A DNA stretch of 64,000 bases. It comes from Escherichia coli (GTDB taxonomy: Bacteria > Pseudomonadota > Gammaproteobacteria > Enterobacterales > Enterobacteriaceae). The position numbers and the translations under genes were made by a program. The stretch lies in assembly GCF_003334355.1 (NCBI RefSeq), contig NZ_QOWP01000005.1, one strand, 5' to 3'. Below the pieces are notes generated by a model. The model ran no database searches. It saw nothing but the letters and a program-made list of their open reading frames with translations, and was not told the DNA's origin. The first letter of the stretch is position 1. The number at the start of each line of letters is the position of its first letter. Positions 765-58,065 of this stretch are shown in pieces.

Positions 765-1478
765 TCAGTCCAGCTGTACACCCAGGCGGCGGGCGACGGC
801 TTCATAGGCCTCGATCAGGCCACCGAGGCTCTGGCGGAAACGGTCTTTGTCCATTTTCTCCAGCGTTTCTTTGTCCCACAGGCGGCTGCCGTCCGGAGAG
901 AACTCATCGCCCAGTACGACTTCACCTTTGTACAGGCCAAACTCCAGCTTGAAGTCGACCAGAATCAGACCAGCATCATCGAACAGTTTTTTCAGCACGT
1001 CGTTCGCTTTGTAGGTCAGCTCTTTCATACGCGCCAGGTTCTCTTTGCTTACCCAGCCAAAGGTTTCGCAGTAAGATTCGTTGACCATCGGATCGTGCAT
1101 GGCGTCGTTTTTCAAGAACAGATCGAACAGCGGCGGGTTCAGCTCAATACCTTCTTCGATTCCAAGACGTTTCACCAGAGAGCCCGCAGCACGGTTACGC
1201 ACGACACACTCAACCGGTACCATATCCAGCTTTTTCACCAGACATTCGGTATCGGAGAGCAGACGCTCCATTTGAGTCGGGATACCCGCTTCAGCCAGTT
1301 TGCTCATAATGAAGTAGTTGAACTTGTTGTTCACCATACCTTTGCGATCAAACTGCTCAATGCGCGCGCCATCCCCTGCTGACGTATCATTGCGGAATTC
1401 GAGCACCAACAGGTCCGGGTTTTCCGTGCTGTATACGGTTTTCGCTTTACCACGATACAACTCAGCTTGCTTTTGCAT
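765..1478 (-). CDS. purC: SAICAR synthetase (phosphoribosylaminoimidazole-succinocarboxamide synthase)
   Basis: ORF 765..1487; I place the start at internal Met ([37 protein letters not shown]...), giving 237 aa; recognised as PurC. Confidence 0.95.
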
Positions 1479-1530
1479 CTTTATCACTCCTGGGTGTGAA
1501 TTAACGTTTTAAAATCTTTTGCTGTCTGGT

Positions 1531-43207: not shown

Positions 43208-44482
43208 TTAACCCAGTAACGTGCGCAAATGCGCGGCTACGCTATCCTGCGCAACTGCCGTTTGCTCACCAGAGCGCAAATCCTTCACTACTGCTGTGCC
43301 GTTAGCCACTTCAGACTCACCCAGCACCACAGCAACGCGGGCACCCCATTTATCAGCACGGGCAAACTGTTTCTTAAAGTTGCCGCCGCCGTGGTTGGTC
43401 ATCAATTTCACGCCCGGTAATTCATCACGCAGATGCTCAGCTAATGCCATAGCCGCAGATTGTGTATCAGCACCTGAAGCCACCAGGTATATATCGACAA
43501 CAGGATCGGCTTTAAATTCCGGATTAACGGCCTGTACTAACAATACAAGACGTTCGAGGCCCATCGCAAAACCGACAGCCGGCGTTGCACGACCGCCCAG
43601 TTGTTCCACAAGACCGTCATAACGACCGCCTGCACACACGGTGCCCTGGGAGCCGAGACTGTTAGTCACCCACTCGAAAACGGTACGGTTATAGTAATCC
43701 AGACCACGCACCAGACGCTGGTTTACGGTGTAAGCGATCCCCGCGCTCTCAAGCAGTTTGCACAGACCGGCAAAATGCTCACGAGATTCCTCGTCCAGAT
43801 AATCGCCTAATGCCGGAGCGTCGTTGAGAAGCGCCTGCACTTCTGGATTTTTTGAATCCAGCACGCGCAGCGGGTTAGTGTACATGCGGCGTTTGCAGTC
43901 TTCGTCCAGCTTTTCTTTATGCTGCTCAAGGAATGCCACCAGCGCATCGCGGTAATTGGCGCGTGCTTCCAGCGAACCGATAGAGTTCAGCTCAAGAGTT
44001 ACGTGCTCGGAAATACCCAGCGCGCGCCACCAGCGGGCAGTGAGCATAATCAGTTCAGCGTCGATATCCGGACCTTGCAGACCGAAAACTTCGCAGCCCA
44101 ACTGATGGAACTGACGATAACGCCCTTTCTGCGGACGCTCGTGACGGAACATCGGCCCGATATACCACAGACGCTGTTCCTGATTGTACAGAAGACCATG
44201 CTCGATGCCGGCGCGTACACAGCCCGCCGTCCCTTCAGGGCGCAGAGTCAGGCTGTCGCCATTGCGATCCTCAAAGGTGTACATCTCTTTTTCAACCACG
44301 TCGGTGACTTCACCAATCGCACGTTTGAATAGCGGGGTCTGCTCTACAATCGGCAAGCGGATTTCACTGTAACCGTAGCTGCCGAGCACGTTTTTCAGTG
44401 TGCCTTCAATGCGCTGCCAGATGGCCGTTTCGCCAGGCAGGTAATCGTTCATGCCGCGAATGGCTTGAATGTTTTTTGCCAC
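43208..44482 (-). CDS. hisS: Histidine--tRNA ligase
   Basis: 424-aa [41 protein letters not shown]... Confidence 0.97.
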
Positions 44483-44487
44483 GTTTA

Positions 44488-44590
44488 TTCTCTTTCTGAA
44501 TATAAAAATGAACCCTCAACGCTTCCCTCAATGTTTCGGGAGCTATGCGGGTTCAATCATACACGGGAAGCGAGGCGCTTCCCATCACGT
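44488..44590 (-). ncRNA. sroE: Possible SroE-type 3'-UTR-derived small RNA in the ispG-hisS spacer
   Basis: A 110-bp spacer between ispG and hisS in the same operon orientation; SroE is described at this position in E. coli K-12. I cannot verify processing sites or structure from sequence alone. Confidence 0.3.
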
Positions 44591-44592
44591 TA

Positions 44593-45711
44593 TTATTTTT
44601 CAACCTGCTGAACGTCAATTCGACGCGCTTCGTCCAGCTGACTGGCTTTCGCACGAATGCGTGCTTCCAGCTGGTCGATCATATCGTTGTTGTCCAGACG
44701 GTCTTTGCGCACGCCATCTTCATAGAGGCCGCTTTTCTTGTTGCCGCCGGTGACGCCGAGTGTAGAAACCAGCGCCTCACCTGGGCCATTCACCACGCAG
44801 CCGATAATCGAAACGTCCATCGGAGTGATGATATCTTCCAGGCGTTGCTCCAGCGCGTTAACCGTACCGATAACATCAAATTCCTGACGCGAACAGGTCG
44901 GGCAGGCGATGAAGTTGATCCCGCGCGAACGGATACGCAGCGATTTCAAAATATCGAAACCGACTTTGATCTCTTCGACCGGATCGGCCGCCAGTGATAC
45001 GCGCAGCGTGTCGCCGATGCCTTCAGACAGCAGCAGACCTAAACCAATGGCGGATTTTACTGCCCCGCTGCGTGCACCACCGGCTTCGGTGATCCCCAGA
45101 TGCAGCGGCTGATCGATCTGTTTTGCCAGCAAACGATAAGACTCAACAGCGAGGAAGACGTCAGACGCTTTCACGCTGACTTTGAACTGATCGAAGTTCA
45201 GGCGATCGAGATGATCAACATGGCGCATGGCGGATTCCAGCAACGCCTGCGGCGTCGGTTCGCCATACTTTTCTTGCAGATCTTTTTCCAGCGATCCGGC
45301 GTTAACGCCAATACGGATCGGAATGTTTTTATCGCGCGCACAGTCAACCACCATGCGAATACGCTCTTCATTACCGATATTGCCAGGGTTAATACGCAGA
45401 CAATCGACGCCGTATTCCGCTACTTTCAGTGCAATGCGATAGTCGAAGTGGATGTCAGCCACCAGCGGCACGTTAACCTGCTGTTTGATGAGTTTGAACG
45501 CTTCTGCCGCGTCCATCGTCGGTACGGATACACGGACGATATCAGCGCCAACGCGTTCCAGCGCCTTGATTTGATTGACCGTTGCTTCGACGTCTGTCGT
45601 ACGCGTATTGGTCATGGACTGTACGGCGATGGGAGCACCATCGCCAATCGGCACATTCCCAACGTAAATACGTGTTGATTTTCTACGTTGAATTGGAGCC
45701 TGGTTATGCAT
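44593..45711 (-). CDS. ispG: 4-hydroxy-3-methylbut-2-enyl diphosphate synthase (flavodoxin)
   Basis: 372-aa [39 protein letters not shown]... Confidence 0.97.
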
Positions 45712-57292: not shown

Positions 57293-57590
57293 TGCTAGTC
57301 TGGTTCGCGGCCTTTCCAGCAGGTTGACTTGTGTTACATGAGCAACGCAGGTGCTTCACAGCAAAACAATACTCACCAGTAACTCTCTTTTTGTCAAGCA
57401 AAAGAGAGTAATTATTGTTTATTTAGCGTATTATCGACACCGGCCCTTTCCGCCGTGTTCGGTAATAAAATAACCTGGCTTATTAGTCCGAATTCAGACA
57501 AATATAAACAAATCCTGCTCAAAATTAAAAATTCTAACCGGTAAAAGATATTACTTAAACATGTAAATTCACTTTCCTTTAAAAAACAAA
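57287..57590 (+). ncRNA. ryfA: RyfA-like small RNA region (copy 1 of a tandemly duplicated unit)
   Basis: About 300 nt bounded by two intrinsic terminators, no ORF over 20 codons with a credible start; contains the 10-bp perfect inverted repeat actctctttt/aaaagagagt. A RyfA sRNA is described between sseA and sseB in E. coli. Boundaries approximate; strand inferred. Confidence 0.4.
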
Positions 57591-57618
57591 AAACCGCCAA
57601 AATCAGGCGGTTTTTTGT
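57585..57618 (+). terminator. Intrinsic terminator between the two repeat copies
   Basis: aaaaaacaaaaaa-ccgcc-aaaatca-ggcgg-tttttt. Confidence 0.7.
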
Positions 57619-57620
57619 TG

Positions 57621-57790
57621 CTGGTCCGGTTCGCGGCCTTTCCAGCAGGTTGTATTACCGTAGTAATGCAAGCGCGTCTCAGCGGAGACAATACTCGCCA
57701 GTAACTCTCTTTTTGTCAAGCAAAAGAGAGTTATTATTGTTCTGTTAGTGTATTATCCACTGCGGCCCTTTCCGCCGTCTCGCAAACGGG
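57621..57790 (+). repeat. Second copy of the RyfA-like unit (direct repeat of 57296-57465, period about 325 bp)
   Basis: Shared blocks ggttcgcggcctttccagcaggtt, caatactc[a/g]ccagtaactctctttttgtcaagcaaaagagagt[a/t]attattgtt and cggccctttccgccgt in the same order and spacing as copy 1, with diverged stretches in between. Confidence 0.7.
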
Positions 57791-57907
57791 CGCTGGCTTT
57801 AGGAAAGGATGTTCCGTGGCCGTAAATGCAGGTGTTTCACAGCGCTTGCTATCGCGGCAATATCGCCAGTGGTGCTGTCGTGATGCGGTCTTCGCATGGA
57901 CCGCACA

Positions 57908-58033
57908 ATGAAGATACGGTGCTTTTGTATCGTACTTATTGTTTCTGGTGCGCTGTTAACCGAGGTAAATAATAACCGGAGTCTCTCCGGCGATAATTTA
58001 CTGGTGGTTAACAACCTTCAGAGCAGCAAGTAA
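57908..58033 (+). CDS. Candidate small hydrophobic protein (41 aa), possible type I toxin of RyfA/TimP type
   Basis: ATG 57908 to TAA 58031-58033: MKIRCFCIVLIVSGALLTEVNNNRSLSGDNLLVVNNLQSSK; hydrophobic N-terminal stretch, followed directly by a terminator hairpin. No strong Shine-Dalgarno. Speculative. Confidence 0.25.
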   Translation: MKIRCFCIVLIVSGALLTEVNNNRSLSGDNLLVVNNLQSSK

Positions 58034-58036
58034 GCC

Positions 58037-58065
58037 CGAATGCCGCCCTTTGGGCGGCATATTTT
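58037..58065 (+). terminator. Intrinsic terminator at the end of the RyfA-like region
   Basis: Hairpin atgccgccc-ttt-gggcggcat followed by atttt, immediately before the sseB stop on the opposite strand. Confidence 0.65.

Follow-up and report, generated by a model that had tools for sequence, protein, structure and literature searches.

SroE has stood in catalogues of small RNAs for two decades without a function, and over that time TraDIS has given it the score "required", and RNA-seq studies have listed it as "expressed" or "Hfq-bound". Here, we ask what the DNA that encodes it, the short spacer between ispG and hisS of Escherichia coli, is for. Our preferred answer, to which we give a probability of about 0.58, is that this spacer is a compact terminator/promoter junction and that SroE is the RNA left over from it. 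We analyzed the spacer in a 64,000-nucleotide stretch of an E. coli contig of chromosomal origin (hereafter, the window) together with the corresponding junctions of other Enterobacterales and their relatives.

The ispG-hisS spacer encodes SroE

In the window, ispG and hisS share the minus strand and are separated by 110 bp (44483-44592), as the first-pass annotation had described. That annotation had also proposed the spacer as the position of SroE. A search of Rfam returned a full-length match to RF00371 (sroE) at 44502-44593 on the minus strand, which spans all 92 positions of the model and scores 114.6 bits, where the gathering score is 51 (E = 6.9e-28; cmscan and a local E-value search). 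SroE lies between ispG (gcpE) and hisS on the strand of both genes, which is the position of the Rfam family. In the curated MG1655 record, sroE (b4761) occupies the homologous 92 nt at 2640595-2640686 and overlaps the ispG stop codon by 1 base; the spacer differs from that of K-12 at a single base (44544, A instead of G). By locus, strand and length, the copy in the window is thus the same RNA as the type member (RF00371, K-12 b4761) in another E. coli strain. The 110-bp spacer is the known E. coli sRNA SroE: the identification is correct and the element was already known. As a label, however, SroE is incomplete, since the same DNA carries a mapped primary transcription start site (TSS) and a conserved -10 box (Table 1). 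SroE was reportedly first described by Vogel et al. in 2003, in Nucleic Acids Res 31:6435. PGAP-annotated genomes do not annotate sroE.

The junction is present as a single copy in all 5426 complete E. coli genomes searched with a 310-nt query across it, at an identity of at least 99% in 5205 of them, and RF00371 also matches the ispG-hisS junction at the same position in 12 of 20 other species. The translation signals of hisS that the first-pass annotation had placed in the spacer are there as well, with the Shine-Dalgarno (SD)-like AAAGAGAA upstream of the GTG. Its core, AGAGA, is kept across Enterobacterales, and the GTG start does not change, in alignments of Enterobacteriaceae (A1) and of sister families (A3).

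Table 1. Features of the ispG-hisS junction, in window coordinates
Feature	Position	Strand	Basis
hisS CDS, 424 aa, GTG start at 44480-44482	43208..44482	-	ORF list, annotation
SD-like AAAGAGAA of hisS, purine-rich, 5' of GTG	44488..44495	-	alignments A1, A3
SroE, 92 nt: hairpin 1, 16-nt linker, hairpin 2, U-run	44502..44593	-	Rfam RF00371, K-12 annotation, fold
U-run UUUUUAU, annotated SroE 3' end, directly 3' of hairpin 2	44502..44508	-	sequence
Hairpin 2, outer stem UGAACCC/GGGUUCA, interior self-complementary	44509..44555	-	fold
Primary TSS, G46 of SroE, 66-nt hisS leader	44548	-	Kim et al. 2012, Table S1
-10 box TATGAT (5/6) of the putative hisS sigma-70 promoter, within linker GUGUAUGAUUGAACCC	44556..44561	-	conservation, TSS
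Hairpin 1, GGGAAGCG-CCU-CGCUUCCC	44565..44583	-	fold
Putative -35-like ATGGGA (3/6 vs TTGACA), weak; overlaps hairpin 1 5' arm	44580..44585	-	inferred
ispG stop TAA (44593-44595) and second in-frame TAA directly after it (44590-44592)	44590..44595	-	sequence
ispG CDS, 372 aa	44593..45711	-	ORF list, sequence, RefSeq annotation of identical DNA

Two hairpins, of which the second is terminator-like

The 92-nt SroE folds at -40.8 kcal/mol (z = -5.68; 0 of 200 shuffles equally stable), and its minimum free energy structure recovers both consensus helices of RF00371. The segment that the first-pass annotation had called hairpin-capable, gggaagcgcctcgcttccc at 44565-44583 (minus strand), does fold, with a stem of 8-10 bp; this hairpin 1 alone reaches -15.9 kcal/mol (z = -4.56; 0 of 200 shuffles equally stable). 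Hairpin 1 does not resemble a terminator in E. coli: the tail that follows it, GUGUAUGAUUG, is not rich in U, and its TransTerm-style tail score of -1.09 falls short of the usual threshold of -2.5. It is probably both the 3'-proximal stabilizing hairpin of the ispG RNA and the 5' hairpin of SroE. RepRanger labels sroE as "REP", which is a palindrome call: hairpin 1 is not repeated in the window.

A second, larger hairpin at 44509-44555, followed by UUUUUAU at 44502-44508, was absent from the first-pass annotation. When the RNA includes its 5' arm, hairpin 2 folds at -23.0 kcal/mol (z = -5.24) with the stem flush against the U-run, and its tail score of -4.33 (TransTerm-style) passes the threshold. 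A stable G+C-containing stem with a U-run right behind it is expected of an intrinsic terminator; hairpin 2 with its U-run is terminator-like and would act as a site of intrinsic termination for ispG read-through transcripts. A simple terminator scanner makes no call on E. coli hairpin 2, which it misses because the loop is longer than 8 nt. In the Term-seq tables of Adams et al. 2021, the 3' ends given for this region lie within hisS or within ispG, and none is at the SroE 3' end, so termination at hairpin 2 may be inefficient, or read-through from ispG may be rare.

Structure and conservation of the SroE region are well above chance expectation. Within an Enterobacteriaceae-only alignment the stems are nearly invariant, with one compensatory pair, and across families a hairpin is kept at the hairpin 1 position despite wholly different sequences. 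In an alignment fitted by covariance model, and hence leaning towards structure, 8 of 8 pairs of hairpin 1 and 2 of 7 pairs of the hairpin 2 outer stem show changes on both sides; paired cells in this structure-leaning alignment amount to 98.9%, versus at most 53.6% with slid partners, and 0 of 500 shuffles attain the values observed. A MAFFT alignment of sister-family spacers (A3) aligned the promoter half and scrambled the 5' arm, and in a TATAAT-anchored test that needs no alignment, the outer stem reached significance only in sequences whose arm is identical to that of E. coli. We dropped covariation as proof of this outer stem, whose support comes from thermodynamics and from the turnover of its interior. 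Independent support for hairpin 2 is strongest in the interior-turnover test, in which every one of the 20 divergent interiors of 15 nt or more extended the helix (mean z = -1.5).

A start site and a conserved -10 box lie inside SroE

Among Enterobacteriaceae (23 loci plus the window), hairpin 1 takes the form GGGAAGC-loop-GCUUCCC and is followed by a 16-nt linker, GUGUAUGAU(U)GAACCC, that is invariant in the family save for a 1-nt deletion in 3 genomes and an A-to-G change in the GAACCC arm in 4. This linker holds the hexamer TATGAT in the window and in 23 of the 23 other loci. Upstream of it, (A/T/C)TGGGA forms the beginning of hairpin 1 and doubles as a -35-like element; TTGGGA replaces ATGGGA in four genera, and matches to the consensus are 3-4 of 6 overall. 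In 22 of 23 Enterobacteriaceae, exactly 18 nt separate this element from TATGAT, and the loop sequence of hairpin 1 varies. A -10 hexamer and a spacer length that are conserved while the spacer sequence is free make up the pattern of a sigma-70 promoter, here over 23 Enterobacteriaceae. Set against a spacing criterion of 16-18 nt, the E. coli hexamers give a -10 of 5/6, a spacing of 18 nt and a -35 of 3/6; this lies below the scanner threshold, and a consensus promoter scanner found no promoter in the E. coli spacer.

A TSS has been mapped to this DNA. Table S1 of Kim et al. 2012 (PMC3415461) reports one at 2638663 (minus strand), with 6 reads, from RNA enriched for 5'-triphosphate ends by terminator exonuclease; the "-50..TSS" string given for it ends in ...GTGTATGATTGAACCCG (in its longer form, ...CCCGTGTATGATTGAACCCG). 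Coordinate conversion via the sroE annotation places it at 44548 in the window, 7 nt after TATGAT and at the first base past the 5' arm of hairpin 2. This position agrees with a sigma-70 start, for which a triphosphate end 5-9 nt after the -10 is expected, in a single dataset with 6 reads. The same study (Kim et al. 2012, PMC3415461) reports a further TSS within ispG, 377 nt upstream of hisS, and its Table S1 contains many low-count intragenic TSSs as well. The supplements of Cappable-seq and SMRT-Cappable-seq hold zero rows for the ispG-hisS region, and we found nothing relevant in the literature on a named hisSp promoter. The mapped TSS and the conserved -10 box in SroE DNA seem to be best fitted by a hisS promoter.

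The place of this start site matters for the RNA that would follow from it. A transcript begun at 44548 folds at only -9.9 kcal/mol (z = -0.78) and leaves the 8 nt AGGGUUCA unpaired 5' of the U-run; in a comparison of folds, the full hairpin 2 forms only on RNA begun upstream of 44548.

Sister families place a hisS promoter at the same junction

To look beyond E. coli, we sampled junctions by anchoring on HisS rather than on the RNA, in 80 species of Enterobacterales, Orbaceae and Vibrionaceae that we take to belong to the families named here. In 80 of 80, ispG lies directly upstream of hisS. Most Vibrionaceae, Orbaceae and some Erwiniaceae have unstructured spacers of 13-60 nt, which are plain operon junctions. 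The Enterobacteriaceae carry TGAACCC/GGGTTCA arms around an interior of 7-160 nt, for which there are about ten unrelated sequences. The U-run precedes the GTG by about 21 nt in this family and the hisS start by 18-25 nt across families. In Enterobacter, hairpin 2 has shrunk to a 7-bp hairpin with a 5-nt loop followed by U6-8, and the Enterobacter cloacae homologue is called a terminator by an independent scanner.

Yersiniaceae, Hafniaceae, Pectobacteriaceae, Budviciaceae and Morganellaceae contribute 22 junctions with the motif TTG(A/C)NN-N17/18-[T/C]ATAAT-C, which ends about 35 nt before hisS and is followed by GG in 19 of the 22; a 23rd junction has the same -10, interrupted by an ERIC-like insertion. 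Alignment A3 is invariant at precisely six elements: -35, -10, CGG, U-run, SD and GTG. In Serratia and Proteus the scanner scores this promoter 10/12 and calls the hairpin after ispG a terminator, and the TransTerm-style tail scores of the post-ispG hairpin are -3 to -4.3 in Yersinia, Serratia plymuthica and Morganellaceae. In Rahnella, Serratia plymuthica and Pectobacterium, the promoter sits inside a stem, TGAACCCG...CGGGTT(C/T)A, that is homologous to SroE hairpin 2; this arrangement is marginal in Brenneria (P = 0.08), and Morganellaceae have the hisS promoter and lack the TGAACCCG-type stem. Judged by their sequences, the sister families clearly appear to provide hisS with its own promoter at the junction, and the predicted start site is always in or past the hairpin: the +1 would fall 6-8 nt downstream of TATAAT, in CGGGTTCA or directly past it. 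Enterobacteriaceae have lost the nested -10, so that their hisS needs either read-through or another promoter.

If read-through alone were the answer, the spacer would be a plain part of an operon, with hisS transcribed solely from ispG and upstream promoters, hairpin 2 acting as a leaky intercistronic terminator or stabilizer that sets the balance between ispG and hisS, the "TSS" at 44548 being a processing site or noise and SroE a stable decay fragment. We consider this unlikely. The 6 reads behind 44548 come from a table rich in low-count intragenic sites, and the -35 is weak and the scanner silent on the spacer; yet the 44548 end belongs to exonuclease-resistant RNA and lies at the canonical distance from TATGAT, and operon read-through leaves unexplained both the invariant 16-nt single-stranded linker and the fixed 18-nt spacing around a free loop. 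The other TSS in ispG, 377 nt upstream of hisS, could supply such transcripts, and the Term-seq record, with no 3' end at hairpin 2, speaks for transcription that evidently runs into hisS. True operon junctions do exist in Vibrionaceae, Orbaceae and some Erwiniaceae, with 13-60 nt of unstructured DNA, but in the sister families a promoter dedicated to hisS is clearly present at the junction, and in Enterobacter a canonical terminator would block an essential hisS that had no bypass.

SroE behaves as a processed RNA and has no convincing published target

The 5' end of SroE behaves as a processed end, on the basis of the literature and of sequence. SroE is listed as a processed RNA, and a consensus scanner finds no promoter-like site upstream of its 5' end. 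This end was recorded only by a method without triphosphate enrichment, and no TSS of the SroE sRNA is recorded for E. coli or K. pneumoniae (Kim et al. 2012, PMC3415461), which together point to processing. SroE is in this respect reminiscent of type-II 3'-UTR sRNAs such as CpxQ, SroC and SdhX: it likewise has no 5' promoter or primary TSS, and it shares with them an AU-rich single-stranded 5' site with U at +2 and a 3' end made of the hairpin and U-run of the parent mRNA. CpxQ, SroC and SdhX have Hfq-dependent seeds and validated targets, whereas SroE has no convincing ones, and SroE, unlike them, extends over the promoter and leader of the gene downstream.

That architecture, a processed 5' end joined to a parent-mRNA terminator, is the starting point for reading SroE as a genuine trans-acting, base-pairing sRNA derived from a 3' UTR, with the single-stranded linker GUGUAUGAUUGAA as its seed and Hfq or ProQ as its partner. 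We regard this as quite improbable. The linker is indeed the sole conserved unpaired stretch of the RNA, but the -10 box accounts for its conservation. Among ten predicted SroE targets taken to EMSA in the INTERFACE study (PMC6172242), only ligB mRNA bound, weakly, and 9 of 10 failed. One list of Hfq-associated sRNAs, from a single condition, nitrogen starvation, includes SroE (PMC12539622); against the trans-acting reading, the (ARN)x motif is absent from SroE, its 3' tail is U5 and then A, and its level changed just 1.75-fold in a K. pneumoniae hfq mutant in a published study. Moreover, RNA-seq and co-immunoprecipitation reads assigned to "sroE" are indistinguishable from the overlapping hisS leader. 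In published work, overexpression of SroE had no biofilm, motility or fimbrial phenotype, and its expression was flat over all nutrient conditions tested; in the literature we found no convincing trans target and no established function.

A role in cis has also been suggested: the SroE region was required in Salmonella TraDIS, and the authors guessed at a T-box-like cis-regulator of hisS (Barquist et al. 2013, PMC3632133). Such a "required" score is expected if the region holds the promoter and leader of an essential gene. We find it very hard to credit that the element is a sensory leader or attenuator, "T-box-like", switching between terminator and antiterminator on tRNA-His charging or histidine: it does always lie 5' of hisS, is required in TraDIS and contains a terminator-like hairpin, as T-box leaders (RF00230) of synthetase genes do, and many aminoacyl-tRNA synthetase genes are leader-controlled, such as hisS by T-boxes in Firmicutes, the only group for which hisS is treated in an attenuator survey (PMC2965389), but there is no T-box or His-leader match in Rfam at 44300-44800 even at E <= 10, neither a specifier nor a T-box sequence, no alternative pairing or antiterminator that is conserved, and 92 nt is one third of T-box size and much below T-box length. 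In addition, the mapped TSS lies inside the element, which gives a hisS leader without the terminator 5' arm, and the hairpin interior is hypervariable, down to a 5-nt loop in Enterobacter. None of the small ORFs in the spacer is conserved or His-rich, and none has more than one His codon: MGSASLPVYD-stop loses its start codon in other genera, and MIEPA-stop of the window is MIEPAWLPKH-stop in K-12. We also rejected a competing antiterminator built from the duplicated GGGAAGCG (44576-44583 and 44520-44527), as this repeat is Escherichia-specific and has 3 matches in the window versus 2.45 expected.

A proposed interleaved terminator/promoter junction

We therefore return to the spacer as a terminator/promoter junction, which would work as follows. 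Transcripts from ispG or from further upstream would carry both arms of hairpin 2, and polymerase would terminate on them at the U-run (44502-44508). An endonuclease, probably RNase E, would cut in the AU-rich region of the ispG stop codons, between A and AUAA; the sequence there has a U at +2, the RNase E signature (summarized in PMC5222698), and RNase E cleavage at this site is what we infer from it. The two hairpins would then shield the 92-nt fragment, giving SroE. The hisS promoter, with its -35-like ATGGGA in the 5' arm of hairpin 1, an 18-nt spacer and the -10 TATGAT in the linker, would initiate just beyond the 5' arm of hairpin 2 and produce an mRNA with a 66-nt leader. As this start lies past the 5' arm, hisS mRNAs would lack the terminator stem and so read through into hisS. 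The junction would in this way uncouple the essential hisS from transcription of ispG, and SroE need have no trans-acting role. Families with a nested promoter would arrive at the same result by carrying the entire promoter within the loop.

Several observations weigh against this model: the -35 is weak (3-4/6), the scanner sees no promoter, the TSS comes from 6 reads in one dataset, Term-seq has no 3' end at the end of SroE (Adams et al. 2021) and outer-stem covariation in hairpin 2 is thin (2/7). What the analysis adds to existing catalogues is only the view that SroE is a by-product of terminator and promoter being interleaved at this junction.

A known point of comparison is the housekeeping operon rpsU-dnaG-rpoD, with its intercistronic terminator T1 and internal promoters. 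There, too, a terminator or attenuator follows the upstream gene and the downstream essential gene has its own promoter, with partial uncoupling of the two. At ispG-hisS, in contrast, the signals interdigitate within about 90 bp, with the -10 of Enterobacteriaceae immediately 5' of the terminator 5' arm and the promoter of Rahnella, Serratia and Pectobacterium in the loop, so that in either arrangement the hisS start site would escape the terminator.

More tentatively, and at somewhat less than even odds, we propose that this is a conserved design of the Enterobacterales junction, in which a hisS promoter is interleaved with the ispG terminator such that incoming RNA is stopped and promoter-born RNA escapes. 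Rahnella, Serratia and Pectobacterium would keep the whole promoter in the loop, and in Enterobacteriaceae the -10 would abut the 5' arm, having perhaps arisen by promoter turnover, with the U-rich tail of an older terminator becoming the new -10. SroE would then be a non-regulatory by-product that owes its "required" status and its conservation to the hisS promoter.

Taken together, and given that the same stretch of DNA seems to hold the hisS promoter, SroE looks more like the by-product of a terminator than like a regulator. If its 92 nt hold the promoter, TSS and leader of hisS, the TraDIS and RNA-seq signals assigned to SroE are confounded, and SroE would best be regarded as a terminated 3' fragment of the ispG mRNA. 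The ispG-hisS junction would then show, in a natural setting, how transcription of two essential genes can be insulated and how a promoter can turn over while its scaffold stays fixed.

Promoters nested in hairpin-2 homologues

We report a near-consensus promoter (TTGAAN-N18-TATAAT) that lies wholly within a hairpin at the ispG-hisS junctions of Rahnella, Serratia plymuthica and Pectobacterium, Brenneria being a marginal case. The enclosing hairpin, TGAACCCG...CGGGTT(C/T)A followed by a U-run, is the homologue of SroE hairpin 2, and the predicted start of the nested promoter falls in its 3' arm or just past it. In three Yersinia species, the predicted hisS 5' UTR holds a further palindromic insertion (TTGATGTTGC...GCAACATCAA), on the downstream side of the nested promoter.

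Comparable layouts are found in other lineages. In Pantoea and Tatumella, the place of SroE hairpin 2 is taken by a hairpin of unrelated sequence and its U-run, 18 nt ahead of the hisS start; TATGAT is included in the loop, and the whole may represent the same arrangement in an independent form. Four Photobacterium junctions share a TTCACT-N17-TATATT motif about 40 nt before hisS and, in two of them (L067 and L068), a strong hairpin lies upstream of this motif, its 3' arm overlapping the -35. This represents another terminator-then-promoter arrangement at the ispG-hisS junction.

Features of the spacer and its surroundings. Positions refer to the window or, for L handles (ispG-hisS junction loci from the 80-species sample anchored on HisS), to locus coordinates.
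Feature	Location	Strand	Detail
hisS start codon	window 44480-44482; 1501-1503 in L002-L053		GTG
GGGAAGCG repeat	window 44520-44527 and 44576-44583	-	two copies
IS128	window 57422-57630	+	Rfam match, 262.1 bits, above threshold
ryfA	window 57762-58065	+	Rfam match, 314.2 bits, above threshold
Nested promoter and hairpin	L022, L025, L027, L037, L040, L041, about 1430-1475 each		
Pantoea/Tatumella hairpin	L036, L038, L039, L043, about 1425-1482		CCTGTGC...GGACAGG + U6-7
Yersinia palindromic insertion	L031, L033, L079, about 1410-1480		about 60 nt
Photobacterium promoter motif	L065, L067, L068, L072, about 1437-1466		TTCACT-N17-TATATT
ERIC-like insertions	L006 about 1325-1420; L054 about 1300-1460; L049 about 1330-1455; L079 about 1160-1350		

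The spacer has also been hit several times by ERIC-like repeats, identified by eye through their common sequence (e.g., ...GCAACTTGAAG...GGGTATA). These insertions sit within the hairpin-1 loop in Pseudocitrobacter, within hairpin 2 in a Klebsiella sp. and between terminator and promoter in Yersinia thracica, while in Photorhabdus caribbeanensis the insertion splits the -10 TATAAT.

The E. coli spacer and published RNA ends

One copy of GGGAAGCG in the spacer lies in hairpin 1, on its 5' arm, and the other in the hairpin-2 interior; in principle, either copy could pair with the hairpin-1 3' arm. This repeat, confined to Escherichia, is not above chance within the window. The window also matches two other established E. 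coli sRNA families, IS128 and ryfA, which adjoin each other about 13 kb from SroE.

The Term-seq data of Adams et al. (2021) place strong RNA 3' ends within the hisS ORF at window positions 44341 and 44190 on the minus strand (K-12 2640434 and 2640283), 141 and 292 nt past the start codon, and a further 3' end within ispG (K-12 2641247); their listing contains no 3' end at the SroE terminator. Kim et al. (2012; PMC3415461) reported two additional low-count transcription start sites on the minus strand: window 44859 (U00096.2 2638974; 4 reads), within ispG and 377 nt upstream of hisS, and window 45826 (U00096.2 2639941; 5 reads), within rodZ and 115 nt upstream of ispG.

Start and stop codons flanking the spacer

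Tandem in-frame stops (TAA TAA; window 44590-44595, minus strand) end ispG, and the annotated 5' end of SroE coincides with the final A of the first TAA. At the other side of the spacer, all 34 aligned Enterobacterales sequences (Enterobacteriaceae and sister-family spacer alignments) have GTG as the hisS start codon, with (A/G)AC before it. That a non-ATG start is kept so well suggests selection for low translation initiation of hisS.
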